Shown: positions 1-11,003 of the stretch, piece after piece | Numbering within the stretch: position 1 is the stretch's first letter | How the letters are laid out: every line of letters begins with the position of its first letter | Origin: a virus | Lineage: Duplodnaviria; Heunggongvirae; Uroviricota; Caudoviricetes | Length of the DNA: 11,003 nt | Direction: 5' to 3' (one strand) | Virus record (IMG/VR): IMGVR_UViG_2698536418_000025 | Translations under genes and position numbers: made by a program | Notes under the pieces: model-generated | Told to the model about the DNA's origin: nothing | What the model saw: only the letters and a program-made list of their open reading frames with translations | Databases searched by the model: none

Positions 1-105
1 TTACTCTAATGCATCAGCAGGCCATGTTCCATTTACTTCATAAGTGTTTTTTAAATTAACAGCATAAAAAGCATTTTCCGAAGGGGAATAAATATATTGA
101 TTCAT
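1..105 (-). pseudogene. Short ORF (34 aa) resembling the N-terminus of a tail-fibre assembly chaperone; probably a truncated remnant
   Basis: Hand translation of the reverse strand 105->1 gives MNQYIYSPSENAFYAVNLKNTYEVNGTWPADALE followed by TAA at 3..1. The ATG (105-103) lies 1 nt after the TAA of the upstream fibre ORF, with AGGAAG about 5 nt upstream, as in coupled fibre/chaperone pairs. The F-Y...G-W-P-A-D-A-L-E pattern is typical of Tfa N-termini, but full-length Tfa proteins are about 150-200 aa. Confidence 0.35.
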
Positions 106-106
106 A

Positions 107-1267
107 TTATCTTCCTATTGCGATAATCATAGTTCCATACAAACCATTTCCGGTTGATACTTTTAAGGTTACTGATGTCCTTGTTGTCGTGTACCCCATA
201 AGTTTAAAGGTCGGAGCAGCGGTTAATGAGCCATCTGACCATAAGGCACTAACAGCCAGTGCGCCTGAAGGAAATGCAATAGGGAAATTACCTGTAGTTC
301 CGTTAGTGTCCGCCCCATAAACATTCATCGAAAACATTTGGACAATATGACCACTTGGTAACTGAAACCAGTTTTTGCCAGATGGAAATGCAGACATATC
401 TGGTATCTGATTTTCCCCTGTTCCCACATTCCGTTTTGCCGCTTCTCCCAAACCAAGGTAATCAAGAACTCCCTGAGTGCTGGTTTTACCAAGAATGGCA
501 CGTCCAACACTTGTCAACGCGGTTAACGCGGCACGATCTGCCCCTGTAAAATATGGGAGTTTATCTGCTGATGTAGCAAGCTCCGCCAGCGCCGTCAGGG
601 TGGCATCCTTCGGTTGCTTACCCGCAAGCGCGTTAGTCATGGTGGTCGCAAAATTCGGGTCATTGCCCAGCGCCGCAGCCAGTTCGTTCAGCGTGTTCAG
701 TGCATCAGGTGACGAATCTACAAGTGCGGCAATCGCGGCCATAACGAAAGCCGTGCTTGCGATCTGGGTACTATTAGTTCCCTGTGGCGCTGTTGGTGTT
801 GTTGGCGTTCCGGTCAGTGCCGGGCTGTTTAATGGTGCTTTCTTGTTCGTTTCATCCATTACCACCTTAACAGCTTTTGGTGTCGCTGCCAGCGTTTCAG
901 ACGTGCTGTTCGTGGCGCTACTGAGCTGAACAATCCCTTTTTGTATAGTGGTGGCGTTCTGGGCGGTATATTTCCCGTTAGCCAGGTCATATGCAGCCTT
1001 AACCGCTTTCGGTGTTGCGGCCAGTGTTTCTGATTCACTGTTAATTGCACTGCTTAACTGAGTAAAACCTTTTGCGGTCAGCGAGGCGTCCGGGTGACGT
1101 CGTGACTGTTCGTGCTCTGAGATTTTATCATCCACATATTTGCGGGTTGCCAGAACCACAGACGGGTCGATTTTCAGCGTGATAGCTTCGGTGTTCGTGA
1201 CAACCAGAATCATGCGGATAGTCTGGGTGCGTCCACTGCCTTCCTGCAACTGCGGTTTGATTCCCAT
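107..1267 (-). CDS. P2 gpH-like tail fibre protein, N-terminally truncated, with conserved shaft repeats and a distinct C-terminal receptor-binding domain
   Basis: The 386-aa ORF carries the repeated fibre motif SLTAKGFTQLSSAxNSxSETLAATPKAVK (twice), then VMDETNKKAPLNSPALTG, and a C-terminal domain ending ...GNGLYGTMIIAIGR. The reading frame is closed by TAA at 1307-1309, only 14 codons upstream of the first ATG, so the roughly 100-aa N-terminal region seen in full-length H-type fibres (as recalled) is absent. Confidence 0.8.
   Translation of the reverse strand: MGIKPQLQEGSGRTQTIRMILVVTNTEAITLKIDPSVVLATRKYVDDKISEHEQSRRHPDASLTAKGFTQLSSAINSESETLAATPKAVKAAYDLANGKYTAQNATTIQKGIVQLSSATNSTSETLAATPKAVKVVMDETNKKAPLNSPALTGTPTTPTAPQGTNSTQIASTAFVMAAIAALVDSSPDALNTLNELAAALGNDPNFATTMTNALAGKQPKDATLTALAELATSADKLPYFTGADRAALTALTSVGRAILGKTSTQGVLDYLGLGEAAKRNVGTGENQIPDMSAFPSGKNWFQLPSGHIVQMFSMNVYGADTNGTTGNFPIAFPSGALAVSALWSDGSLTAAPTFKLMGYTTTRTSVTLKVSTGNGLYGTMIIAIGR
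443..468. other. 26-bp Hin/Gin/Cin-type recombinase crossover site (site 1) inside the fibre gene at the shaft/variable junction
   Basis: TTCTCCCAAACCAAGGTAATCAAGAA has 12-bp imperfect inverted half-sites around a central AA, resembling hix (TTCTTGAAAACCAAGGTTTTTGATAA) and gix. It encodes LDYLGLGE in the fibre reading frame. Confidence 0.6.
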
Positions 1268-1476
1268 GAGTTTAAATCCATCGAACGGCAGATAGCATAA
1301 CCCGCCTTATGTATACCAGGTTCATCCAGACAGGAATATGCAGGGATACCGACACCAATGGCAAGATATTCATTTGAAGTAGAAATATATTCCCGAGTTT
1401 TACCATCATAGTTATAGACGGTAATATTCCCCGCCTTCGTGGCAATAAGCTCGCTATTTAATACGGCGTTATCCAT
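1210..1476 (-). pseudogene. Tail-fibre assembly chaperone (Tfa) N-terminal fragment, truncated and overlapping the start of the downstream fibre ORF
   Basis: The 88-aa ORF contains TVYNYDGKTREYISTSNEYLAIGVGIPAYSCLD, a typical Tfa N-terminal motif. It starts in a TAATG overlap with the stop of the preceding fibre cassette. Tfa-like similarity ends near residue 70 and the frame runs into the fibre ORF in another frame. Confidence 0.6.
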
Positions 1477-1997
1477 TATGCAGCCCTCACGATATAGTTA
1501 AATGCAATATTTCGTGGACGGGTTTCACTCCCGCCAGTATTACCGATACTCCCTCGTGAATGAAGTGTCGGTGATGGGATCAGACTCCCTCCTGTATTTG
1601 TGGCATCAAGTCCACGTCCTTGTGTGTATGTCTTTTTGAAAATCGTAGCCAGTTCCCATTCATCTTTTGTGTCGTAACCATCATTGGCAACAACAATATG
1701 GCGGTGTTTTTCCAGCATCCCTGTCTGAATGCTCAATAAAACACGTCCTGCATCAATACCGCGCCCGTCATCCCAGCCACGAATAAACTCACCACGTAAA
1801 TCAGGTAATTTATTTGTCGGATAAGCCTTTGCCAGTTCCGGGTATTCTTCAGCAGAAAAAGCCGCACCGTTGCATTTCAGCCAGCCTGTTGGCGGTGTGG
1901 CTGAAGGCCATGGAACAGGCACACCAACAGGTAATGCAGAGCCTTCTCCCAAACCAACGTTTAAGAAAATGCAGAGATTACGGCTAACTGGCATCAT
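1476..1997 (-). CDS. Tail-fibre variable C-terminal cassette (Mu S / P2 H type receptor-binding domain), apparently promoterless
   Basis: The 173-aa ORF has the motif PVGVPVPWPSATPPTGWLKCNGAAFSAEEYPELAKAYPTNKLPDLRGEFIRGWDDGRGID typical of Mu S / P2 H C-termini. Crossover site 2 lies in codons 10-18, and there is no fibre shaft region upstream. Confidence 0.7.
   Translation of the reverse strand: MMPVSRNLCIFLNVGLGEGSALPVGVPVPWPSATPPTGWLKCNGAAFSAEEYPELAKAYPTNKLPDLRGEFIRGWDDGRGIDAGRVLLSIQTGMLEKHRHIVVANDGYDTKDEWELATIFKKTYTQGRGLDATNTGGSLIPSPTLHSRGSIGNTGGSETRPRNIAFNYIVRAA
1944..1969. other. 26-bp Hin/Gin/Cin-type recombinase crossover site (site 2), 55 bp upstream of the invertase start codon
   Basis: TTCTCCCAAACCAACGTTTAAGAAAA shares its first 14 bp exactly with site 1 in the same orientation. 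It encodes FLNVGLGE in the cassette reading frame. Confidence 0.65.
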
Positions 1998-2024
1998 CCC
2001 CGGTTTTTATTCAGGGGATCCATC

Positions 2025-2624
2025 ATGCTTATTGGCTATGTCCGCGTATCAACAAATGACCAGAATACAGAATTGCAGCGTAACGCGCTGGAGTGCGCAG
2101 GATGTGAACTGATTTTTGAAGATAAAATCAGCGGAACGAAATCAGCCAGACCGGGATTGAAAAAACTGCTCAGAACGCTATCAGAAGGAGATACGCTGGT
2201 TGTCTGGAAGCTGGACAGACTGGGCAGAAGTATGAAACACCTGATCACGCTTATTGAGGAATTGCGGGAAAAAGGTGTTAATTTCCGTAGTCTGACGGAC
2301 AGCATTGACACATCAACACCCATGGGGCGTTTCTTTTTTCACGTCATGGGAGCTTTAGCCGAAATGGAACGTGAATTAATTGTAGAGCGTACACTGGCCG
2401 GGCTGGCAGCAGCACGCGCACAAGGACGCATTGGCGGACGTCGCCCGAAGTTGACAAAAGAACAACACGAGCAAATAGCGAGGCTGATTAAAAACGGTCA
2501 TGACAGGAAACAACTGGCGATCATTTACGACATCGGCATATCGACGATTTATCGTTATCACCCTGTAGGCGATATACAGGCTGAAGAAACAATCAGGCAG
2601 ATTCAGGAAAATGAAAACCGCTAA
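2025..2624 (+). CDS. Serine-recombinase DNA invertase (Gin/Pin/Cin/Hin family)
   Basis: The 199-aa ORF begins MLIGYVRVSTNDQNTELQRNAL with the catalytic Ser in the VRVST motif, and contains GDTLVVWKLDRLGRS, SLTDSIDTSTPMGRFFFHVMGALAEMERELIVERT and a C-terminal helix-turn-helix region. It closely resembles Gin/Pin as recalled. Confidence 0.95.
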   Translation: MLIGYVRVSTNDQNTELQRNALECAGCELIFEDKISGTKSARPGLKKLLRTLSEGDTLVVWKLDRLGRSMKHLITLIEELREKGVNFRSLTDSIDTSTPMGRFFFHVMGALAEMERELIVERTLAGLAAARAQGRIGGRRPKLTKEQHEQIARLIKNGHDRKQLAIIYDIGISTIYRYHPVGDIQAEETIRQIQENENR

Positions 2625-2643
2625 TCTGACCATTAGCGGTTTT
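2614..2643. terminator. Bidirectional intrinsic terminator between the convergent invertase and U genes
   Basis: A perfect 12-bp inverted repeat, AAAACCGCTAAT (2614-2625) and ATTAGCGGTTTT (2632-2643), surrounds a 6-nt loop. A/T runs flank the stem on both strands, and the stem overlaps the invertase stop codon (2622-2624). Confidence 0.55.
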
Positions 2644-2650
2644 GCGTTAA

Positions 2651-3145
2651 TCAAAACAGCCCTTTAACGGAGCTGGCCGCGCTGTTAAGGGATGATGTGA
2701 CCTTATCTTTGAAGCCGGACAGCATATCACTGAACGATGAGGATTGCAGGCGCTCCCGCAAATCCTCATCACAGCGTTCAAGAGTCAGTGAAAATTCTAT
2801 CTTTTTCGCCTTACCGTAGCGATCAAACTCGGAGCGGGTCGTATTCGTTTCAGTCAGTACATACATGCCGTAAATCTGTCCGACGCCATCAATCAGAGGC
2901 CAGGGGCGTCCTGTATACGCCTGCGTGGTCAGCAGCGACAGCGACACTTCGCCACCTGTGATTTCAGGATAAAGCACACCAGAAAGCACGATGCGATCAT
3001 CGCCTGCCCCGATATACTGCCAGCTTGCTGAACGGTTAACGCGTTCATTTTTCACATGCCGCCAGCTTTTATTTTGCTGTAACTGCTGATGCGGCAATGT
3101 GCGCAGCTCAAAAACAAACATGCCGTAGATCATCATCATGGCCAT
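2651..3145 (-). CDS. U: P2 gpU-family tail protein
   Basis: The 164-aa ORF lies immediately downstream of the tape-measure gene in the P2 gene order; size and sequence pattern (...TGGEVSLSLL...GRPWPLIDGVGQIYGMYVLTE...) match gpU as recalled. Confidence 0.8.
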   Translation of the reverse strand: MAMMMIYGMFVFELRTLPHQQLQQNKSWRHVKNERVNRSASWQYIGAGDDRIVLSGVLYPEITGGEVSLSLLTTQAYTGRPWPLIDGVGQIYGMYVLTETNTTRSEFDRYGKAKKIEFSLTLERCDEDLRERLQSSSFSDMLSGFKDKVTSSLNSAASSVKGLF

Positions 3146-3151
3146 GACTCC

Positions 3152-5995
3152 TCAATCTTTATCGTAAAAACTGCCACGTCCGGCACGGTCGCGTCGTTCC
3201 AATTCTGCCCTGACCATTTCACCGACCAGTTTCGCCAGTTCGCGGGGATTCTGCGTAACAACGTTATGCAGATGAACATGAATTTCACCGCCAAATCCGG
3301 AGACAACAGGCTCCCGGTTACGGGAAGTTGCAGGAACTGATGCCACTGGCGATCGTATGGCCTCCGCCACCGGGCGGGAGCTGGCCGCAACAACAGGGAC
3401 CAGCGCCGGAGGCAGAGGAGTCGGGACCACGGGTGTGATGTTGATTGCGGAAGCAGGCTTACTGACCTGCGCAATCTTCCGCTCCTGCCACTCCCCACGA
3501 ACAGCAAGTGCGCGGGGCAGGTTCTTAAAGACAATATCGCCGGGGCCAATGCGTTTTTTCGTCTCATCAACCAGCTTACCTGTGTTATCAGCAATTTTGC
3601 TGAGTCTGCGTAGCGTACCGGTATTGCTGTCTGTGAGCGGTTTGTTGTCTTTGGGTTTATCACCTCCGGTGCCATTGCCATTTTCCACAGGCTTCGGCGG
3701 ATTGATTTTCGCCAGGTCCCCCTGAAGCAAGGCAACCTTGTCCTGAAGAATGGCCGCACGCTGTGCGTCTTCGATTTTCTTGCGCGCCCTTTCCGCTTCA
3801 TCCGGAAGGACGCCAAGTTTTTCAAGTATCCACGCCAGCGTATCCAGTAGCATTTTTGCAGGCGTCAGAACAAGTTGTAACGCACCGCCAAGAACGTTAC
3901 CGAATATCTCGCCAGCACTGGTACATTTATCCAGCGTTTCCTTGCTGGACTCCATCGGTGACAGCAGCGATTTAAACCAGTTAAACACCTGGCTGATCCC
4001 GCTTCCGATTGCGTCAAAAACAGGACCAAACCGTTCAAAGGTTTCGCGCAACGGGGCCAGCCTTTCCATAATCCCGCTGAACACCCCGGCAAAAAATGCC
4101 CTGATGGGATCCCAGTATTTCCAGATAAGAACGGCAGCTCCGGCAAGCGCAGCCACGATAAGACCAACCGGACTGAACAGCGCCCCGATAGCACCCCCCA
4201 GCAAAGAAACGGAACCCGTCACCATTCCCCATAGTGCTGGCAGGAGCCTGACAGCATTCATTGATCCGGTCAGGAGGGAAAAACCAAGACGCAGTTTTGC
4301 CAGTGGGCCAGCAAGCACACCAAGAGCAAGCGACAACGAGCCTACGGTTGCAGTCACTGCCAGCAGCGCACCGCCTGCAATCAGTAGCTGGCGCGTCAGT
4401 ACAGGATGGGCCTGCGCCAGTGCCGTCACCTTTGAGACCACCCGCGTTAGCCACTGCGTGACAGAACGCAGCGGACCGTCAATCAGATCTGCAATGCGGA
4501 TGCGCAACCCTTCCCATGCACTGCCGAGTGATTTCAGATCGCCGTCAAGGTTGTTGGCCATAACCTTTGCCGTGCGCTCAGCCTCACCGCGCGCGCCTTC
4601 AAGTTCTTTTCTCAGTTTAGGTAAGGAGCCGTCACCTGCCGCATCAACGAGGGCCATAAATGATGTGAAAGCCTCTTCTCCGGCAATGTCCTTAAAGAAC
4701 GATACCCGGTCAACTTCCCCGTATTTGCGGGTGGCTTTATAAAGGTCGGCCAGCAAATCCTCCATCGGGCGCATTTTGCCGTTCGCATCAGAGACGGACA
4801 CGCCCAGCTCTTTCAGAGCTTCTGCCGCCGCCTTTGGCGGTGATGCCAGACGAGCCAGGCTGGCACGCATTGCCGTCCCGGCATCACTTCCCCTGATACC
4901 CATATTCGCCAGTACGCCCGCCATCGCTGCGGCCTGCTCCAGCGATATTCCCAGCTTGCCCGCCACCGGACCTGCATATTTCATGGTTTCACCCAGTGCG
5001 CGAAGGTCAGTGTTGGTACGGGTAAACGCTGCGGTAAGTGTGTCACCGACCCGGTCCATCTGGTCAGCAGAAAGGCCGAACTGCGTCAGGATATTTGAGC
5101 CAATATCCGCCGTCTCGCCGAGATCCATACCGCCAGCCGTTGCCATGCTCAGCACGCCGGGAAGCGCAGCCTGAATGGCCTGCGGAGTAAAACCAGCCAT
5201 TGCAAGAAATGCCTGCCCACTGGCGGCATCGCCTGCGGTGAACTGCGTTTCAGAGCCAAGTTTTAACGCCTGCTCACGCAGCGCCTTAAACTGCGGGCTG
5301 TTTTTGTCGATTCGCGTCAGTGCCTGAACGCGGGACATCTCTTTCCCGAACCCGATCGCAGGCTGCAAAAAACGCCCGGCAGCATAGCCGCCCGCAGCTG
5401 CCGCACCAATTGCCAGCGCACCACCTGTTTTCAGTTTTCCCGCTGTTTCCTGTGCGCGCGAATACCGCTCACGCGCCCGCGTTACACGCGCAAGCGCCTG
5501 CCGTTCGCGTTCAAGCTGGTTGTTGTACTGTTCGGTGCGTCTGATGGCCTGCTGGATGGTGTTATCGCTGCCTGTCAGGGAAATGCCGTGGCGTTTCAGC
5601 TCTCCGCCAAGCTCCCGCATTTTCTGAATTTCCCGTGTGCGCGATTCATTCAGGCGTTCAAGCCGGGTGCTTAACTGCTGCATCAGCTTTTGTTGTTTTT
5701 CGCTGAGCACTGTACCCGTGCGTTGTAACTGATTAAGGGCGTTAAGCTGGCGTCGTGCTTTCACGATACCCGCATCCGCTTTACTGACAGCGTCGCGGGC
5801 GCGCTCAAATGAACGCGCCTGACGCTCGAGATTTTTGATCGCCCCCTGCGTTCGCTGGATGGAGTCACCAAACTGCCCCATCAGGCGGCGTGCGTTTTCT
5901 GCAGGTCGGGTCAGCCTGTCAACGGCGCTGAAAGCGACCCGGATATCAAGAGTCTTCATTGTCTGCATTCCCGCTGCGAAGTGCCGCCCGCTCAC
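3152..5995 (-). CDS. T: Tail tape-measure protein (P2 gpT family)
   Basis: The 947-aa ORF has a coiled-coil-rich N-terminal region, Gly/Ala-rich hydrophobic segments, and sits between E/E' and U. The track start at 5995 is GTG; in-frame ATGs at 5966-5968 and 5957-5959 (the latter with GGGA 9 nt upstream) are alternative starts. Confidence 0.9.
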   Translation of the reverse strand: MSGRHFAAGMQTMKTLDIRVAFSAVDRLTRPAENARRLMGQFGDSIQRTQGAIKNLERQARSFERARDAVSKADAGIVKARRQLNALNQLQRTGTVLSEKQQKLMQQLSTRLERLNESRTREIQKMRELGGELKRHGISLTGSDNTIQQAIRRTEQYNNQLERERQALARVTRARERYSRAQETAGKLKTGGALAIGAAAAGGYAAGRFLQPAIGFGKEMSRVQALTRIDKNSPQFKALREQALKLGSETQFTAGDAASGQAFLAMAGFTPQAIQAALPGVLSMATAGGMDLGETADIGSNILTQFGLSADQMDRVGDTLTAAFTRTNTDLRALGETMKYAGPVAGKLGISLEQAAAMAGVLANMGIRGSDAGTAMRASLARLASPPKAAAEALKELGVSVSDANGKMRPMEDLLADLYKATRKYGEVDRVSFFKDIAGEEAFTSFMALVDAAGDGSLPKLRKELEGARGEAERTAKVMANNLDGDLKSLGSAWEGLRIRIADLIDGPLRSVTQWLTRVVSKVTALAQAHPVLTRQLLIAGGALLAVTATVGSLSLALGVLAGPLAKLRLGFSLLTGSMNAVRLLPALWGMVTGSVSLLGGAIGALFSPVGLIVAALAGAAVLIWKYWDPIRAFFAGVFSGIMERLAPLRETFERFGPVFDAIGSGISQVFNWFKSLLSPMESSKETLDKCTSAGEIFGNVLGGALQLVLTPAKMLLDTLAWILEKLGVLPDEAERARKKIEDAQRAAILQDKVALLQGDLAKINPPKPVENGNGTGGDKPKDNKPLTDSNTGTLRRLSKIADNTGKLVDETKKRIGPGDIVFKNLPRALAVRGEWQERKIAQVSKPASAINITPVVPTPLPPALVPVVAASSRPVAEAIRSPVASVPATSRNREPVVSGFGGEIHVHLHNVVTQNPRELAKLVGEMVRAELERRDRAGRGSFYDKD

Positions 5996-6475
5996 GCCAG
6001 CTAACCACTTCGCCGGGCGTCATCATGAAGATTTCGGCGGGCGACCAGTTAAAAATAACGGCAATATCTGCCACAAAGTCTTCTATGTGCTCAAAGCACA
6101 CAACCGTGATCAGGCTTCCGTCGCCTGTTCGTTCTTCCCGCCAGAGTCCGCACCGCTCAAAAAATTTACGGCAACCACACATAACTGAATAAAGTCACGG
6201 GATGCCATTTTTTTGATCGTCACTTCATCCAGTCGCGGTGATGTCACGCGTGACAGCAGCGTAAACATGGATTCCGCTTTCAGATTCAGCACATCAGACA
6301 GCGACAAATCTCGCAGAGATCCAGCCTGCTCAATAGCCCCGGTGATCTCCACATACGTGATTTTTTCGCCGCCTCGCTCAATTGGTTGGGTAAGTTTTAC
6401 GCCACGCTCACTGGTTTCTTTCACAGTGTCAGCAACTACCGTGTTTTCGGTATCGATGTTTTTCGTCTCTTTCAT
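5946..6475 (-). CDS. E': Tail assembly chaperone E+E' (-1 programmed frameshift product)
   Basis: The E frame (6110-6475) and the E' frame (5946-6182) overlap at a slippery T-TTT-TTG heptamer, with E' in the -1 frame. This is the arrangement upstream of tape-measure genes in P2-like and lambda-like tails. Confidence 0.7.
6110..6475 (-). CDS. E: Tail assembly chaperone gpE
   Basis: The 121-aa ORF between the tube and tape-measure genes has AAGGAG upstream of its ATG and ends ...VAVNFLSGADSGGKNEQATEA. Confidence 0.85.
   Translation of the reverse strand: MKETKNIDTENTVVADTVKETSERGVKLTQPIERGGEKITYVEITGAIEQAGSLRDLSLSDVLNLKAESMFTLLSRVTSPRLDEVTIKKMASRDFIQLCVVAVNFLSGADSGGKNEQATEA
6158..6164 (-). 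other. Slippery heptamer TTTTTTG for the E/E' -1 translational frameshift
   Basis: Plus-strand caaaaaa at 6158-6164 is TTTTTTG on the minus strand. The E frame reads AAT-TTT-TTG (N-F-L) and the E' frame reads TTT-TTT-GAG (F-F-E). Confidence 0.7.
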
Positions 6476-6529
6476 CAGGAAACTCCTTTCAGTCAGAGGC
6501 GGCGCACTGCGCCGCCTGCATATTACTTA

Positions 6530-7042
6530 TCAGCCAAGCCCAAGCGCGGAACGGATGCGATCAGGCACGATGTCCTTGCCGTCCTTCCGGTAGATGTGGT
6601 TCAGCAGGTCGATTTCCCACAGCGGACGATCGTTAACGCTCAGCTTGTAGTAGGTGTTTTTGACAGCGTAAGTGTGTGATGTGGCTTCGCCCTGTTTGGC
6701 TTCCCCCATATCAATTTCCGTCACACGCCCGCGCATCTCGATTTCATACAGATCACTTTCTGCATCGGTGTAGTATTCACCCGCAAAACGCAGCAACGTG
6801 CCGTCAATCGTGCCGCCATATTTAAGGAACAGCTCACGAACTGCGCCCCCCATGACAAAACTCGCATCAAGCGCAGAATCATCAAGACCGAGGTCGATAC
6901 TCACCGCCCCCATCATGCCACCGCCACGATAGCTTTCAGTTTTGCGCGTCAGTTTAGGTGGAGTGACGGACGTCACCTTACCCACTTCGTTTTCACCATT
7001 CACAAACAGCGTAAAAAAGCGAAGATGTTTTGGTACAGCCAT
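6530..7042 (-). CDS. FII: Tail tube protein (P2 gpFII family)
   Basis: The 170-aa ORF has PPKLTRKTESYRGGGMMGA...DLGLDDSALDA...RFAG..Y, matching the P2 FII pattern as recalled. Its start overlaps the sheath gene stop (ATGA-type coupling at 7042). Confidence 0.9.
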   Translation of the reverse strand: MAVPKHLRFFTLFVNGENEVGKVTSVTPPKLTRKTESYRGGGMMGAVSIDLGLDDSALDASFVMGGAVRELFLKYGGTIDGTLLRFAGEYYTDAESDLYEIEMRGRVTEIDMGEAKQGEATSHTYAVKNTYYKLSVNDRPLWEIDLLNHIYRKDGKDIVPDRIRSALGLG

Positions 7043-8226
7043 CAGACACCTCCCAACACCGCAAATGCGGGATCAAAGTATTCATCAGTAAACGTCTGGT
7101 AAAGCTCCATATCTTCCAGCGGAGGAACGGGCGTATATTTGTAGCGAATACGCACACGCCCCTGACGTAAATCCGTGGTGCTGTTATCCACCACGTCATA
7201 CCAGCACGACGCGCCAATCAGTTTCCCGGCAGTAACCAGTGAATCCAGTTTTGCCCTGATGGCACTGATAACATCCTTCACGTTCGCAGGCGTCAGTGGA
7301 CTGTCGATGGTTTCAAACTGCGCTTCCGCAATTGAATCAGCCAGCACCTGTGCGGTTCGGGTATACACCTCAAAGATGTAGGCGTTCGTTTCCGGTGTGC
7401 GGTTGCCCCAGAAGCGGAACCCGTTGCGACGAATAATGGTCGTGATTTCTTTGTTGTTGAGGCTGTTGGCATCACTGTCTTCGGCCTGCAACGACCAGAA
7501 CACATGCCTGGACATTCCCAGCACATTTTTAACCGGAACGTTGGACAGCGATTTGTGCCAGCCCTGCTCATGGTCAATGTACGCACGAAGGCCGCACGCA
7601 TAGGCAGGCGCGGGGAACGTTTCGTTTTTGCCACTTTTCGGGTTGTAGGCGATGAAGTCCGGCCATAAGAGCATCACCTCACGTTCGTTGAATTTCTGGC
7701 GGTAGGTAATCGCCTCAGCCATCGTGTTACAGCCGTGACATGAGGCATACACAAACGCGCGCAGCTTACCCGCAATCACGCACAGGGATTTTGTCACCGC
7801 CTCCGTGTCCAGCTCCGGCGCGGCCAGAATACGCGGACGGTATCCGATGCTTTCATCCTGTTCTGCAACAAGCAGCGCATACATCCCCGTATAGCTGCCG
7901 TCATCCTCAGAACCACCGATAACCAGTTGATCCTGCGTCTTTCCGTCTTCTTCTTTGTGTTCAGCCACGCGAACGACGATCACCTTTGTGCTCACCTGGT
8001 CTGCGATGGCCTTAAGCGCACGATAAAGCGTCCCCGTTGTTCCGCATTTTCCCAGCACGTCATTGACGCGGGTCAGCAGTGTGGGCTTGTTCAGCGGGAA
8101 CAGCTTCGCGTCCGCATCATCCGCCGTTGCCACGATACCGATAACGCTGGAATCAACATCGTTAATCGCTGTTACCAGGTCGGTATTTTCCGTAACACGG
8201 GCACCATGAAAACGAGTTTCACTCAT
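7042..8226 (-). CDS. FI: Tail sheath protein (P2 gpFI family)
   Basis: The 394-aa ORF has the conserved sheath motifs FPLNKP, AIADQ, KLRAF, YRQKF, WPDF, EQGWHKSLSNV, IRRNGFRFWGNRT, YTRTAQV and TPVPPLE. AGGGGG lies 7 nt upstream of the ATG. Confidence 0.92.
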   Translation of the reverse strand: MSETRFHGARVTENTDLVTAINDVDSSVIGIVATADDADAKLFPLNKPTLLTRVNDVLGKCGTTGTLYRALKAIADQVSTKVIVVRVAEHKEEDGKTQDQLVIGGSEDDGSYTGMYALLVAEQDESIGYRPRILAAPELDTEAVTKSLCVIAGKLRAFVYASCHGCNTMAEAITYRQKFNEREVMLLWPDFIAYNPKSGKNETFPAPAYACGLRAYIDHEQGWHKSLSNVPVKNVLGMSRHVFWSLQAEDSDANSLNNKEITTIIRRNGFRFWGNRTPETNAYIFEVYTRTAQVLADSIAEAQFETIDSPLTPANVKDVISAIRAKLDSLVTAGKLIGASCWYDVVDNSTTDLRQGRVRIRYKYTPVPPLEDMELYQTFTDEYFDPAFAVLGGV

Positions 8227-8383
8227 AGCTTCACCCCCTTGTATCCGTTAAATGATTCGGCAACAATCATCACCCACCACGCGCGTAATCTCACCCCTGC
8301 GCCATTCTCCCGCCACGGCGACAACAAAAAGCAGTAACCCCCTCCGCACGCACATGCGACCATGCCGCACAGGGAGGGAACAG

Positions 8384-9493
8384 ATGACCGACACCACCAT
8401 GCAATTGCTCAGTCAGAGCACAGACCCCGTAAAAATGCCGGATTTTGATATTCTCGCGGAGGGTAAAACGCTGTCCGGCGTGGCGGAGCGCCTGATGAGC
8501 CTGTCGCTGACCGACAACCGGGGATTTGAGGCAGACCAGATCGCCATCACGCTGGATGATGCGGATGGTCAGTTGCAGCTACCGCCACGGGGCGCGCGCC
8601 TGACGGTTCTCATTGGCTGGAAAGGAGAACCGCTGACAGAAAAAGGCACTTACATTGTTGATGAAATTGCTCATGAAGGACCGCCCGACAGGCTGACTGT
8701 TTCAGCCAGAAGCGCAGATTTTCGGGATGAATTTAACGTTAAACGTGAGGTGTCCTGGCATGATGTGACCGTTGAGCGCGTGGTATCCGCCATCGCTCAT
8801 CGGTACGGTCTGAAACCGCAAATCAGCGAAATGCTGATGGATATTGAAATCGACCACGCCGACCAGACCGAAGAAAGCGACATGTCCTTCCTTACACGCA
8901 TGGCGGAAATGCTGGGCGCAATCACCACGGTAAAAAGCGGTAATCTGTTATTCATCATGCCCGGCGGTGGCGTGAATGCACAGGGCCAGCCGTTGCCCTC
9001 GTTCGCCATCACACGCAGCAGCGGCGATCGCCATCAGTTCCGCATTGCTGACCGCGAAGCGTATACGGGGGTACGCGCTTACTGGCTTGATCTTAATTAC
9101 GGGAAAAAGAAAAAAGTCAGCGTGAAACGCCGCAAACCGCCAAAACCCAAAAAGGAGAAAAGCAGCAGCCGTGAAGGTGATTATATGGAAGGTGCGGCAG
9201 GCAATGTGTTTGTGTTACGCAAGACTTACCAGAACGAGCAGGCAGCAAGGCGTGCAGCGGCGGCAAAGTGGCAGCAACTACAACGCGGAGCCGCATCATT
9301 CTCCATCACGCTGGCGCGTGGACGTGCAGAACTCTACCCTGAAATGCATGGCACGGTGACAGGCTTCAAAAGTGACATCGACAATCAGGACTGGATTATT
9401 GCAAAAGCCGAGCACACCATTGATAACAGCGGCTTTACCACGCAGCTTGAGCTTGAAGCCAAAATCCCGGAATGGATAGCGGAAACAGAATGA
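8384..9493 (+). CDS. D: P2 gpD-family tail protein (late control D)
   Basis: The ORF is about 370 aa from the ATG at 8384, which has a strong AGGGAGGG Shine-Dalgarno 5 nt upstream. The track ORF begins in frame at 8252 but that start has no visible SD. Size and position next to ogr fit gpD. Confidence 0.8.
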   Translation: MTDTTMQLLSQSTDPVKMPDFDILAEGKTLSGVAERLMSLSLTDNRGFEADQIAITLDDADGQLQLPPRGARLTVLIGWKGEPLTEKGTYIVDEIAHEGPPDRLTVSARSADFRDEFNVKREVSWHDVTVERVVSAIAHRYGLKPQISEMLMDIEIDHADQTEESDMSFLTRMAEMLGAITTVKSGNLLFIMPGGGVNAQGQPLPSFAITRSSGDRHQFRIADREAYTGVRAYWLDLNYGKKKKVSVKRRKPPKPKKEKSSSREGDYMEGAAGNVFVLRKTYQNEQAARRAAAAKWQQLQRGAASFSITLARGRAELYPEMHGTVTGFKSDIDNQDWIIAKAEHTIDNSGFTTQLELEAKIPEWIAETE

Positions 9494-9581
9494 GCAATTT
9501 AGATGCCCTTACTCAGACCTAAGTCAGTATATTTATTGCGCACACTAAGCTCATTAAGACAATTCACTCTACATTAATTTC

Positions 9582-9609
9582 TTGAACACAACCCAATAAA
9601 CGATAAAAT
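9582..9609 (+). promoter_or_regulatory. Candidate sigma70 promoter for the cargo gene
   Basis: TTGAAC (9582-9587), a 16-bp spacer, then TAAAAT (9604-9609), about 37 bp upstream of the ATG at 9646, in an AT-rich intergenic region. This is a motif match only. Confidence 0.3.
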
Positions 9610-9645
9610 TTTCATGGTATTTCTTCCCCATAATAAGAGAACTGT

Positions 9646-10251
9646 ATGAGCAATAACTGGATATATGTTGGTGCTAATATTAATGATCACCAATGGTCAA
9701 AAGTAGGAAAAACAACTCGCGGTCTGCAGAATAGACATGTCTCATCCCAGAACCCAGGGTTCTTTATTTACACTGCTTATAACATCATAGACGGTGATGT
9801 TCATGAGATTGAGTCTAATCTTTTGGTATATCTTGAGTCTCAACCTGGTGTTAAGCGTATACGTCACCTTAGCACCGGCAGTAAAAGTGAGTGTTTTTCT
9901 GTGCACCCTGAAGAAGTTGCCTGTTTAGTGGAATCATTTATCAATAATCACTATCCCTCATGTGTAACTCACGAGTTTTTATTTGACGGAATAAGCCGCT
10001 ATCAATGCCCTAAAGATTTGTATAACAATTTTAATCGACATCAGAAGCCTGATGAAAAGTTACCATCATGGTGTGAAGAGCCTTCGACACATCTTCCAAA
10101 TAATTTGAATATGTCTTCCGAAAAGTACTTTACAAGTAATCAGGTAGAACATGAAGCCGATTTAGGGAATGGATATTTTGTTGATTACCTCACAGGACTA
10201 CAGGGATATAGGGATGAAGATGGAAACGAAATTTATGATGAACCTAAATAA
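9646..10251 (+). CDS. Hypothetical cargo protein with an N-terminal GIY-YIG-like (T5orf172/MUG113-type) domain and an uncharacterised Cys-containing, acidic C-terminal half
   Basis: The 201-aa ORF has AAGAGA 5 nt upstream of the ATG. Its N-terminus has IYV (aa 6-8), KVGKTTRGLQNR (aa 19-30), HEIE (aa 53-56) and SECF (aa 81-84), arranged like the GIY / (K)IG-T / R / E pattern of T5orf172-type GIY-YIG domains. It is strongly AT-rich and sits between D and ogr. Confidence 0.6.
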   Translation: MSNNWIYVGANINDHQWSKVGKTTRGLQNRHVSSQNPGFFIYTAYNIIDGDVHEIESNLLVYLESQPGVKRIRHLSTGSKSECFSVHPEEVACLVESFINNHYPSCVTHEFLFDGISRYQCPKDLYNNFNRHQKPDEKLPSWCEEPSTHLPNNLNMSSEKYFTSNQVEHEADLGNGYFVDYLTGLQGYRDEDGNEIYDEPK

Positions 10252-10411
10252 GATAACAAATCATTAGATGGTAACTTATTGAATACAATGCATTTTTATA
10301 GTTAATTCTGAAGAGAAAACAATTCCATTTACCATTCAAAGCGGACTAACGGTTGGAGTCTGAGTCAGTACAACTTAGAATAGCGGCAGCATCACGTTAA
10401 GGGAGGTCGCT

Positions 10412-10672
10412 ATGTTCCGTTGTCCGCTTTGTGGCGCATCTGCCCGTATCCGCACCAGTCGTCCGGAAAATGATTCAAACACAGTGCGGCAAAAATATTA
10501 CCAGTGTAACAATCTGGAATGCGGCGTATGCTTCTCAACACTGGAAGCTTTCCATAAATTCACATCGAAACACGCTCCCGGCGTTCACTCTTCAGAGGGC
10601 ATCCCGTGGAATGAGCTGCCAGCTTCGCACAGGGGAAACAACCAGATGAGTTTGCCTTTACCTCAGAATTAA
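10412..10672 (+). CDS. ogr: Ogr/Delta-family zinc-finger late-gene transcriptional activator
   Basis: The 86-aa ORF begins MFRCPLCGASARIRTSR and has a second Cys pair in YYQCNNLECGVCF, giving a C-X2-C...C-X4-C zinc finger as in P2 Ogr. A strong AAGGGAGG Shine-Dalgarno lies 5 nt upstream. Confidence 0.85.
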   Translation: MFRCPLCGASARIRTSRPENDSNTVRQKYYQCNNLECGVCFSTLEAFHKFTSKHAPGVHSSEGIPWNELPASHRGNNQMSLPLPQN

Positions 10673-10732
10673 CAGGCAGAATTGCCGGAGTAACAAAAAA
10701 GCGATAGATTACGCGCGGGTGCCTTTCGGCTG

Positions 10733-10996
10733 ATGGTCGGAGGGAATACCCGAAGGCCAGATGTGGAAAGGCCCCGGAAAACATTTCTGTTTAACCGAGG
10801 CCCTAACCGCATTACCTTGACAAGTGAAAGGTTAGCGCCTCTCCGGAAAAGGAGCAAGTGCTATGTCGCAAAAATCGCTTACGGCCATCACGTTCTGCGT
10901 GACGGCAATCCTCATCATCTGGATGCTGCACGGTTCGCTGTGCGAAATACGGATGAGCTTCTGGGGAGCGGAGTTTGCGGCGTTCTTACAGTGTAA
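10733..10996 (+). CDS. Mok-like overlapping reading frame of the hok locus (start uncertain)
   Basis: The 87-aa ORF is in a different frame from hok, overlaps nearly all of it, and ends 7 nt before the hok stop, the geometry of mok in hok/sok loci. It has no recognisable sequence motif of its own. Confidence 0.3.
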   Translation: MVGGNTRRPDVERPRKTFLFNRGPNRITLTSERLAPLRKRSKCYVAKIAYGHHVLRDGNPHHLDAARFAVRNTDELLGSGVCGVLTV

Positions 10997-11003
10997 GCAG
11001 TAA
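10863..11003 (+). CDS. hok: Hok/Gef-family type I toxin (small membrane peptide)
   Basis: Hand translation gives MSQKSLTAITFCVTAILIIWMLHGSLCEIRMSFWGAEFAAFLQCKQ (46 aa): an N-terminal hydrophobic helix followed by SLCEIR and E-x-AAF motifs matching Hok family toxins (Hok R1 has ...SLCEIRYRDGHREVAAFMA). AAGGAG lies 8 nt upstream of the ATG. Confidence 0.75.
   Translation: MSQKSLTAITFCVTAILIIWMLHGSLCEIRMSFWGAEFAAFLQCKQ

Follow-up and report, generated by a model that had tools for sequence, protein, structure and literature searches.

A Gin/Pin-family tail-fibre inversion switch that has probably flipped and then decayed in a P88-like prophage of Escherichia coli

DNA-inversion host-range switches are textbook modules, already annotated and seen to flip in the phage group considered here, and an inversion module in the P2-type tail region is the standard, already known architecture of P88-like prophages. 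In an intact system, the constant N-terminal part of the fibre gene H would end in a 26-bp site, a second, inverted site would lie about 80 bp upstream of the invertase gene, and at least two alternative fibre C-termini with their chaperones would be held between the sites. A hallmark of the family is an enhancer in cis, located in the 5' portion of the invertase gene and carrying two Fis sites spaced by about 48 bp. Invertase dimers bound to the sites would synapse on this Fis-bound enhancer, whereupon cutting at the central AA dinucleotide and a rotation of 180 degrees would flip the segment and fuse H to a different receptor-binding tip. Sequencing and PCR have demonstrated inversion, together with coexisting variants, in the P2-like prophages carried by EPEC E2348/69 (Goldberg et al., 2014; PMC4272514), and one related locus compared here (L009) carries three sites with a spacing difference of 439 bp, which fits the ~400 bp reported for E2348/69 (PMC4272514). 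Further examples include the Pectobacterium tailocin carotovoricin Er, which has an invertible fibre, and Fin, the invertase of the Salmonella P2-like prophage Fels-2 (both cited in PMC4272514 and PMC7953296). The window, that is, the whole stretch of 11,003 nt that was analysed, contains the following features.

1-4, no strand: last 4 nt (TTAC, where E. coli JP538 has AATA) of an IS66-family (ISCro1-like) element lying left of the window
1-105, minus strand: remnant of the tail-fibre assembly (chaperone) gene tfa2, truncated to 33 codons plus a hybrid codon, the stop coming from the IS end
5-12, no strand: 8-bp target-site duplication TCTAATGC of the IS insertion, from the flanks of the window and of a sister contig (L010) placed on JP538
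107-442, minus strand: gp53-like fibre C-terminal variable part (Pfam Gp53-like_C), fused in frame to the fibre constant region
443-468, plus strand: crossover site A, TTCTCCCAAACC AA GGTAATCAAGAA, with an outer half of the type normally joined to the fibre constant region
469-1259, minus strand: part of the fibre (gpH) constant region, starting at codon 110 and lying in reverse of its usual orientation
1259-1260, no strand: blunt junction of fibre codon 110 with tfa1 codon 72, without microhomology when the parent sequences are compared
1260-1476, minus strand: truncated chaperone gene tfa1 (tfaE-like), N-terminal 72 codons, equivalent to JP538 (locus L001) 11300 down to 11084
1476-1943, minus strand: silent Collar-type fibre C-terminal cassette (Pfam Collar; C-terminal part of PHROG 523)
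1944-1969, plus strand: invertase-proximal crossover site B, TTCTCCCAAACC AA CGTTTAAGAAAA, 26 bp, 55 bp from the invertase ATG
2025-2624, plus strand: intact serine DNA invertase of the Gin/Pin/Cin/Hin subclass, 199 aa (Pfam and structure-level alignment)
2049-2120, no strand: probable Fis-bound recombinational enhancer, predicted, with blocks at 2049-2072 and 2097-2120, 48 nt apart
2614-2643, no strand: terminator-like hairpin with a 12-bp stem, between the convergent invertase and gpU genes
2651-3145, minus strand: tail gene gpU, first of the flanking FI-FII-E-T-U tail block (Pfam Phage_P2_GpU; synteny with P88, JP538 and E2348/69)

The locus closely resembles the modules of P88-like prophages, including those of EPEC E2348/69, with which it shares the gene order of H, tfa, an inverted tfa with cassettes, the invertase, gpU-T-E-FII-FI on the opposite strand, and gpD with ogr, at 94.8% DNA identity over 7.5 kb and 96.5% identity to the E2348/69 invertase. 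However, in the P88-like and E2348/69 loci H is intact and has an oppositely oriented site, whereas in the window H is truncated and inverted, the chaperone genes are broken and an IS lies at the edge. The e14 P region with PinE is likewise close, sharing 25 of 26 site positions, the AA core, a site-to-invertase distance of 80-81 nt, a Collar-type silent cassette (stfE/tfaE, 81-85% DNA identity) and an enzyme 82% identical, although e14 is lambdoid rather than P2-type and its sites are inverted rather than direct. The Mu G/Gin and P1 C/Cin systems have in common with the window the enzyme subclass (73% identity to Gin, 75% to Cin), the 26-bp site design and the swapping of fibre C-termini and chaperones, but differ from it in phage type and core dinucleotide (TC in Mu), and P1 cin lies on the other side of its segment. 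By description, carotovoricin Er and Fels-2 Fin are comparable in that the fibre specificity of a P2-type contractile tail is switched by a DNA invertase; carotovoricin, however, is a headless tailocin, whereas the relatives of the window element are complete phages.

On gene order and identity, the host element is a P88-like (Xuanwuvirus) P2-type prophage of E. coli. Positions 2014-9503 are 94.8% identical to P88, and the annotated P88-like order of invertase, gpU-T-E-FII-FI on the opposite strand and gpD-ogr recurs in P88, JP538, UTAK-1, Br_178 and E2348/69. The original prediction had left open whether the tail belonged to a phage or to a tailocin; an R-type tailocin of the carotovoricin kind, a tail cluster that lacks genes for capsid, packaging and replication, is disfavoured, as the close relatives are complete prophages (JP538 carries terminase, capsid and lysis genes beside the same module), while the window itself spans tail genes only.

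The invertase ORF matches the Pfam profiles Resolvase (residues 3-135, E 6e-52) and HTH_7 (138-180, E 1e-12), aligns over its whole length with 3UJ3 and 4M6F, structures of Mu Gin (E ~1e-91), carries Ser9 within VRVSTNDQ, and is 100% identical to a protein of E. coli JP538. It thus combines an N-terminal catalytic resolvase domain, the serine nucleophile (position 9/10 in the family) and a C-terminal DNA-binding HTH in 199 aa, the family size being ~190 aa. The residues specific to Fis-dependent invertases that contact Fis and the enhancer are, in Hin, K47, R48, K51, Q151, R154 and L155 (McLean et al., 2013; PMC3798978). Their equivalents in the window invertase, read from the translation with the Gin alignment offset, are K46, K47 and R50 together with EQIARL, which contains the motif Q-x-x-R-L, giving basic residues at Hin positions 47, 48 and 51 and counterparts of Q151, R154 and L155. 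By these features the enzyme belongs with the Fis/enhancer-dependent DNA invertases, within the Gin/Hin/Cin/Pin small serine recombinases, and the Gin/Pin-type gene named in the original prediction is borne out by the Pfam domains, the Gin alignment and the identities. Such a fully intact invertase ORF would be unexpected were the switch long dead, an observation that speaks against decay. A simple scan of the 55-bp spacer found no sigma-70 promoter for the gene, and Rfam gave no RNA family within the window. A shufflon, in which the tyrosine recombinase Rci acts on sfx repeats, was rejected because the window recombinase is of the serine type; the resemblance is limited to the multi-cassette logic of some related loci.

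A Fis-bound enhancer is probably present inside the 5' end of this gene. When synonymous variation was scanned across 28 non-redundant invertase genes, the two lowest windows of the gene were nt 25-48 and nt 73-96 (0.188 each, vs a mean of 0.399), and the most conserved 15-mer in the first 540 nt analysed was nt 27-41. The region test gave P = 0.04, a weak value for sequences related by descent. A strict degenerate Fis motif matched at gene nt 71-85 only, that is, in the second conserved block, and the enhancer claim therefore rests on conservation.

Sites A and B are both 26 bp long and imperfectly palindromic with a 2-bp core. The pix site next to pinE in e14 reads TTCTCCCAAACC AA CGTTTATGAAAA, so that site B is identical to it at 25 of 26 positions, and the arrangement of half-sites and core in site B is that of Mu gix and P1 cix. 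A half-site weight matrix gave site B 27.5 bits and site A 24.8 bits; in a background of 25.7 kb from the relative JP538, the highest score of any 26-mer other than a site was 9.4. Across 89 related loci the core was AA in 196 of 198 sites, and in essentially every related locus with upstream sequence and detected sites a plus-strand site starts 79-81 nt before the invertase start. The claim of a 26-bp hix/gix-like site 55 bp from the invertase is upheld by the pix match and the matrix score. An inverted partner had also been anticipated, upstream and outside the window; a second full site does exist, but it lies within the window, and A and B are both on the plus strand as 1,501-bp direct repeats. 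The right half of site A is found on the strand opposite to the invertase-proximal site in 18 of the 20 sites that carry it, the sites of JP538 are inverted, and 61 related loci have sites in both orientations. The direct orientation is accordingly a defect of the window copy and leaves the enzyme's family assignment untouched. All that can be seen in the window matches what the original prediction would have taken as a fossil switch, namely a site with no inverted partner.

The ORF at 1476-1997 (minus strand) is similar to tail-fibre families in their C-terminal part only (Pfam Collar; positions 468-638 of 673 in PHROG 523), and site B falls at its codons ~13-19 (NVGLGEG). These matches around the site agree with the earlier claim that it lies within a promoterless fibre C-terminal cassette; a look-up with the ORF of this Collar-type cassette brought up nothing but an unrelated prophage (L007). 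The gp53-like domain occupies residues 303-386 of a 386-aa ORF, and the alignment of the H fragment ORF begins at profile position 111 of both PF12571 and PHROG 7032. The tfa1 remnant corresponds to residues 1-78 only of the tail fibre assembly families PHROG 105/7290, and the left edge of the window covers part of an annotated 444-bp tfa gene of JP538 (11658-12101). Relatives possess an intact constant fibre N-terminus and alternative C-termini with working chaperones; the window does not, since its H fragment is inverted and lacks ~110 N-terminal residues, and tfa1 and tfa2 are reduced to 72 and 33 codons, respectively. To the left of the window there could be a complete H gene that has an inverted site, which would count against a decayed locus.

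That the switch once worked is indicated by comparison with JP538, to which the window is 99.99% identical over 9 kb. Four blocks, at identities of 99.6-100%, relate the two: window 5-456 to JP538 12001-12452 (plus), 442-1259 to 10617-9800 (minus), 1260-1960 to 11300-10600 (minus) and 1943-11003 to 12438-21498 (plus). Flanks are exchanged reciprocally between window and JP538 exactly within the shared TTCTCCCAAACCAA, which pins the exchange to 14 bp common to the sites, and because the exchange falls exactly at both sites the switch has flipped recently. On this comparative, not experimental, evidence, an inversion between the two sites has occurred in this lineage. In JP538 the Collar-type sequence is the expressed end, fused to the fibre constant region, and the silent cassette adjoining the invertase is 99.6% identical to the gp53-like part of the window; relative to JP538, therefore, H now carries the gp53-like tip, while the tip of Collar type sits beside the invertase. 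The pair forms a clean natural before-and-after example of inversion. Related loci with site strand patterns of -+++++, -----+ and --++++ represent different shuffled states.

At the left edge, an IS66-family element has, judging from the junction, cut the chaperone gene tfa2. The sister contig is 100% identical to window 1260-5232 and has the same IS end and 8-bp duplication: its IS terminates in GAGTCGCTTAC beside the same target and encodes the IS66 proteins TnpA, TnpB and TnpC, and in E. coli genomes the element is annotated as belonging to the ISCro1 family. From JP538 12001 the flank of the window runs upward, and from 12008 that of the sister contig runs downward, reading GCATTAGA (reverse complement). 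An 8-bp duplication is typical of IS66. The junction between IS and tfa2 was absent from IMG/VR and complete E. coli genomes, and the first 24 nt of the window had no exact match in GTDB representatives, JGI metagenomes or IMG/VR.

The second lesion is the blunt junction, where CTGCGGTTTG (to 1259) is followed by ATTCCCATGAG (from 1260). Searches of 5,426 complete E. coli genomes, the GTDB representatives, the JGI metagenomes, IMG/VR and 89 fetched loci did not find it; look-ups with the chimeric ORF products spanning the rearrangement gave no match, and the predicted reciprocal junction of CCCGGAAACGTA with ATGTGCCAGACC was not found in IMG/VR. Action of the invertase at quasi-sites was rejected as its cause, as no core dinucleotide is shared; around the breakpoints, the 26-mers most like a site reach -2.6 and -11.4 bits, vs 25-27 for real sites, and lie off-centre from the breakpoints.

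These data favour a model, to which we assign a probability of about 0.72, in which the feature represents the end nearest the invertase of a tail-fibre inversion switch of the Gin/Pin family, one that flipped, then decayed, and no longer inverts. The lineage of the window did flip, bringing the gp53-like tip to H and the Collar-type tip beside the invertase. Probably after the flip, an IS66-family element cut tfa2, and an illegitimate, non-site-specific rearrangement turned the H fragment from codon 110 and joined it to tfa1 codon 72. Such a rearrangement would leave the sites as 1,501-bp direct repeats and no complete fibre gene in view, so that inversion would no longer be possible, and the switch in the window is, as read from its sequence, most likely locked or decayed. 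The host-range switch module of the original prediction hence stands as regards its layout, which it shares with Mu G, P1 C and, above all, e14 P, and its past inversion relative to JP538, but not as a working copy; with the fibre gene truncated and inverted and both chaperone genes broken, a present-day phase-variable receptor specificity is unlikely. As an insertion element and a rearrangement seem to have broken the copy, it is an ordinary case, not a new one, and of small importance beyond correct annotation, although it illustrates how a switch may decay when inverted sites become direct repeats through the insertion of an IS and an illegitimate rearrangement.

Alternatively, the switch may be functional, the window showing only the silent cassettes of a multi-cassette array, with a complete H and an inverted partner beyond the IS and the inverted H fragment serving as an extended silent cassette. 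Arrays with up to eight same-strand sites do exist (L008, L044 and L046), one locus (L045) has an inverted ~570-nt H-like fragment among its silent cassettes together with a distal site of opposite orientation, and the invertase of the window is intact. However, the near-identical JP538 has just two cassettes and two sites, all of which are accounted for in the window, and both visible chaperone genes are truncated. Further, the H fragment is 100% identical over 818 nt (window 442-1259) to the single H gene of JP538 (10617 down to 9800), which makes it that very gene in a new place and not an old copy that has diverged. We consider a functional array unlikely.

Since no other sequence has the junction at 1259/1260, the possibility that it is an artefact of assembly or of chimeric reads must also be weighed. 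The arrangement left of 1260 would then stem from a culture containing both orientations, the real genome running from H with the gp53 tip through tfa2 interrupted by the IS, tfa1 and the Collar tip to the invertase. Many draft contigs of this prophage family end <2 kb from the invertase, which shows that assemblers struggle at this locus, and the sister contig is continuous from tfa1 to tfa2 at the junction point, as an artefact would lead one to expect. However, the parent sequences share nothing at the junction that might mislead a graph assembler, which makes a de Bruijn-graph mis-join unlikely; the window differs from the sister contig elsewhere (its tape-measure gene is intact at 5232), and the two are therefore separate genomes; and L045, from an unrelated lineage, has a similar, real-looking structure. 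An artefact is thus quite unlikely, and decay after a flip remains the preferred reading.

It could also be proposed that the invertase has been kept to act in trans on sites elsewhere, such as e14-type P segments or those of other prophages, for example by generating chimeric fibres that block phage adsorption as with PinQ. PinQ, from one cryptic prophage, flips the P segment of e14 and has an inhibitory effect on phage T2 (PMC12529663), and this precedent, the near-identity of site B to e14 pix, the similarity of the enzyme to PinE and an intact invertase within a decayed locus are all compatible with the proposal. The decay nevertheless looks recent, given the 100% identity to intact relatives, and an intact invertase therefore requires no selective explanation; trans action is very unlikely as the reason for its retention. 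Within a broken locus, an invertase that is itself intact might still work in trans on e14-type sites elsewhere, which is relevant to recent reports of recombinase-driven phage defence.

Finally, the 1,501 bp between the direct sites (443 to 1943) are an exact circular permutation, opened at the crossover site, of contiguous JP538 9800-11300, the arrangement that would result if the invertase had integrated a small one-site circle at the proximal site. It is nevertheless highly improbable that they entered in this way, or that Gin-type invertases, besides inverting fibre cassettes, occasionally capture or excise them as circles in an integron-like manner. A similar inverted H fragment lies inside the array of the independent lineage L045.

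The Gin/Pin-type fibre switch is a real, already known module of P88-like prophages, and what the window carries is most likely a locked version of it that decayed recently. Listed ORFs, searched against Pfam and PHROG and compared with annotated genomes, show the window to be the tail end of such a P88-like (Xuanwuvirus) P2-type prophage, with the following features:

1-105, minus strand: tfa2 fragment, 34 codons (fibre-assembly gene)
107-1267, minus strand: fibre ORF, 386 aa, in which a gp53-like C-terminus follows the gpH constant region (about residue 110 onward)
1260-1476, minus strand: first 72 codons of tfa1, the second assembly gene
1476-1997, minus strand: Collar-type fibre C-terminal cassette
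2025-2624, plus strand: recombinase, 199 aa
2651-8226, minus strand: gpU, tape measure, E, FII and FI
right of FI, plus strand: gpD, a 201-aa ORF, ogr and hok

P88 matches window 2014-9503 at 94.8% identity, and the prophage of E. coli JP538, in which terminase, capsid, lysis and baseplate genes are also present, matches 1943-11003 at 99.99%. The original prediction of a Gin/Pin-type serine invertase is borne out by the recombinase at 2025-2624, which carries Resolvase and HTH_7 domains (Pfam), can be aligned end to end with the sequences of the Mu Gin crystal structures (E ~1e-91) and keeps the catalytic Ser9. In global alignments it shares 73% of residues with Gin, 75% with P1 Cin, 82% with e14 PinE, 96.5% with the invertase of an EPEC E2348/69 P2-like prophage and 100% with the JP538 protein, and it conserves residues specific to enhancer-dependent invertases (basic at Hin 47, 48 and 51, together with Q151, R154 and L155; PMC3798978). 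The predicted 26-bp hix/gix-like crossover site is likewise present at 1944-1969 (site B, TTCTCCCAAACC AA CGTTTAAGAAAA), with the invertase ATG 55 bp beyond its end; a single position separates it from the pix site next to pinE in e14, and its half-sites and core are arranged as in Mu gix and P1 cix. A half-site weight matrix derived from 61 different related sites gives it 27.5 bits, and the highest score of any 26-mer other than a site in 25.7 kb of JP538 is 9.4. The proposed embedding of the site in a fibre C-terminal cassette also holds, as site B encodes NVGLGEG close to where the Collar-type ORF begins, an ORF that matches the C-terminal part of fibre families only (Pfam, PHROG); the observation is therefore right on all points. 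Gin, Hin and Cin require an enhancer, bound by Fis and situated within the invertase gene at its 5' end (PMC3798978). When synonymous variation was profiled along 28 non-redundant invertase genes (Mu, P1, e14 and P88 included), the two lowest windows anywhere in the gene were nt 25-48 and nt 73-96 (0.188 each versus a gene mean of 0.399), 48 nt apart, and nt 27-41 was the most conserved 15-mer among the first 540 nt analysed; a region-wide test was weak (P = 0.04, on sequences related by descent). These blocks fit candidate Fis sites at window 2049-2072 and 2097-2120, although a degenerate Fis motif matches in the second only, and the evidence for the suggested enhancer is indirect.

Crossover sites were mapped in 80 IMG/VR loci with related invertases and in several annotated genomes. 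The invertase-strand site starts 79-81 nt before the start codon in all loci with upstream sequence and detected sites, and the core is AA in 196 of 198 mapped sites. Both site orientations are present in 61 loci, and many loci carry arrays of three to eight sites in patterns (e.g., -+++++, --++++, -----+) that are shuffled states of one kind of array. Coexisting inversion variants have been sequenced in both P2-like prophages of EPEC E2348/69, and the four variants of the prophage with three inverted repeats were PCR-validated (Goldberg et al., 2014; PMC4272514). The E2348/69 locus mapped here has three sites in a -++ pattern, which allows two inversions; the 439 bp by which these differ is close to the difference of ~400 bp in that study (PMC4272514). 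As a 2024 preprint describes a fibre hotspot of P2-like phages in which DNA invertases have inverted neighbours, and as the P88 annotation already carries "DNA invertase", the architecture is known, annotated and, through the E2348/69 data, experimentally supported.

Evidence that the switch has operated comes from JP538, against whose prophage locus BLAST divides the window's left 2 kb into these four blocks:

window 5-456: JP538 12001-12452, plus
window 442-1259: JP538 10617->9800, minus
window 1260-1960: JP538 11300->10600, minus
window 1943-11003: JP538 12438-21498, plus

The block edges at 442-456 and 1943-1960 coincide exactly with site A (443-468, TTCTCCCAAACC AA GGTAATCAAGAA), which repeats the 14-nt half-site plus core of site B, and with site B itself. 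In JP538 the Collar tip is joined to the constant region of the fibre gene H, and it is the gp53-like tip that is silent, next to the invertase, whereas in the window the gp53-like tip is on the H region and the Collar tip is beside the invertase. The outer half-sites have kept their own flanks (GGTAATCAAGAA that of H, CGTTTAAGAAAA that of the invertase), and the partner switch falls in the shared inner half TTCTCCCAAACC AA. Because this tip exchange matches the product of one invertase-mediated inversion, the lineage of the window has flipped since its split from JP538. The predicted phase-variable switch stands as regards a past inversion, but is unlikely to operate in the present copy: the partner site, overlooked in the original prediction, lies inside the window, at 443-468, and on the same strand as site B, so that the two form 1,501-bp direct repeats. 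A site with the H-type outer half is opposite in strand to the invertase-proximal site in 18 of the 20 sites with that half, the exceptions being the window and one internal site of L045, a locus of an unrelated lineage (~81% identity). Sites in this arrangement are recombined inefficiently by wild-type invertases of the class; Fis-independent Hin mutants perform direct-repeat deletion as readily as inversion, "in contrast with" the wild-type reaction (PMC4817059).

Two further lesions, like this arrangement, distinguish the window from its relatives. At the blunt junction 1259|1260, H codon 110 in inverted orientation is joined to tfa1 codon 72, and the parental sequences share not one base. 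Crossover-site action at this junction was rejected, its sequence being unlike any crossover site on weight-matrix scoring. At the left end, window 1-4 (TTAC) differ from JP538. A sister contig (L010; IMG/VR 2690316161_000021), 100% identical to window 1260-5232, starts with the terminal bases of an IS66-family element (...GAGTCGCTTAC), directly followed by GCATTAGA, which is window 5-12 in reverse complement; the flanks of the two have exactly 8 bp of JP538 in common (12001-12008). An 8-bp target duplication is expected for IS66, and the IS end and flank overlap thus indicate that one and the same insertion, which cuts tfa2 short after 33 codons, has its other junction where the window begins. 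L010 holds two inverted copies of the element (ISCro1-like; 1-114 and 4796-7184), one in tfa2 and one in the tape-measure gene at the equivalent of window 5232|5233, a junction that carries an N. The prophage lineage is being broken up by this IS66-family element.

The most economical history that we infer would begin with an ordinary two-cassette switch, which would have inverted to the gp53-expressing state before the IS entered tfa2; a single illegitimate inversion, with breakpoints at JP538 9799|9800 and 11300|11301, would then have left what is in view, namely no complete fibre gene and two broken chaperones. Alternatively, H may be complete further left and have its site there in inverted orientation; in L045, an inverted H fragment coexists with a normal distal site. 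That fragment (2594-3178, ~570 nt of fibre constant region between silent cassettes) adjoins a same-strand site with an H-type outer half, the same odd layout as window 443-1259, and such structures may recur in separate lineages. The junction 1259|1260 could also be an assembly or chimeric-read artefact, being private to the window (it was not found in 5,426 complete E. coli genomes, GTDB representatives, JGI metagenomes, IMG/VR or any fetched locus); however, a graph mis-join would need shared sequence, of which there is none, and there are other differences between the window and L010. A further reading, unlikely though it is, has a small circle integrating at the proximal site: formally, JP538 9800-11300, opened at its site and circularly permuted, gives exactly what lies between the direct repeats.

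Beside the switch, where the invertase and gpU genes converge, a perfect hairpin with a 12-bp stem (AAAACCGCTAAT...ATTAGCGGTTTT; 2611-2645) takes in the stop codon of the invertase; it probably terminates transcription both ways, insulating the silent cassette from tail-operon read-through. Between gpD and ogr, an 867-bp insert of low GC (9504-10370; 35-38% versus 50-60% in its neighbours) is accessory cargo, as it is in JP538 and missing from the UTAK-1 prophage; the 201-aa product of its ORF (9646-10251, plus strand) had no match in Pfam, NCBIfam, PHROGs or PADLOC. A hok/gef-family toxin gene, annotated in JP538, lies at the right end of the window (region 10863-11003), and an Rfam search at the gathering threshold returned no hok/sok RNA. 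Since its stop codon is the window's right end and the left end is an IS-made stop codon, the window boundaries follow gene calls. At least 17 of the 80 IMG/VR draft contigs stop within ~2 kb upstream of the invertase, which fits assemblers breaking at an invertible segment in mixed orientations. Finally, a different, non-P2 prophage beside purL-side host genes (L007) carries at 9898-11900 an identical 173-aa Collar cassette ORF including site B, plus a second pix-like site, with only a partial invertase match nearby (76.8% identity); fibre cassettes are exchanged between phage types together with their sites.
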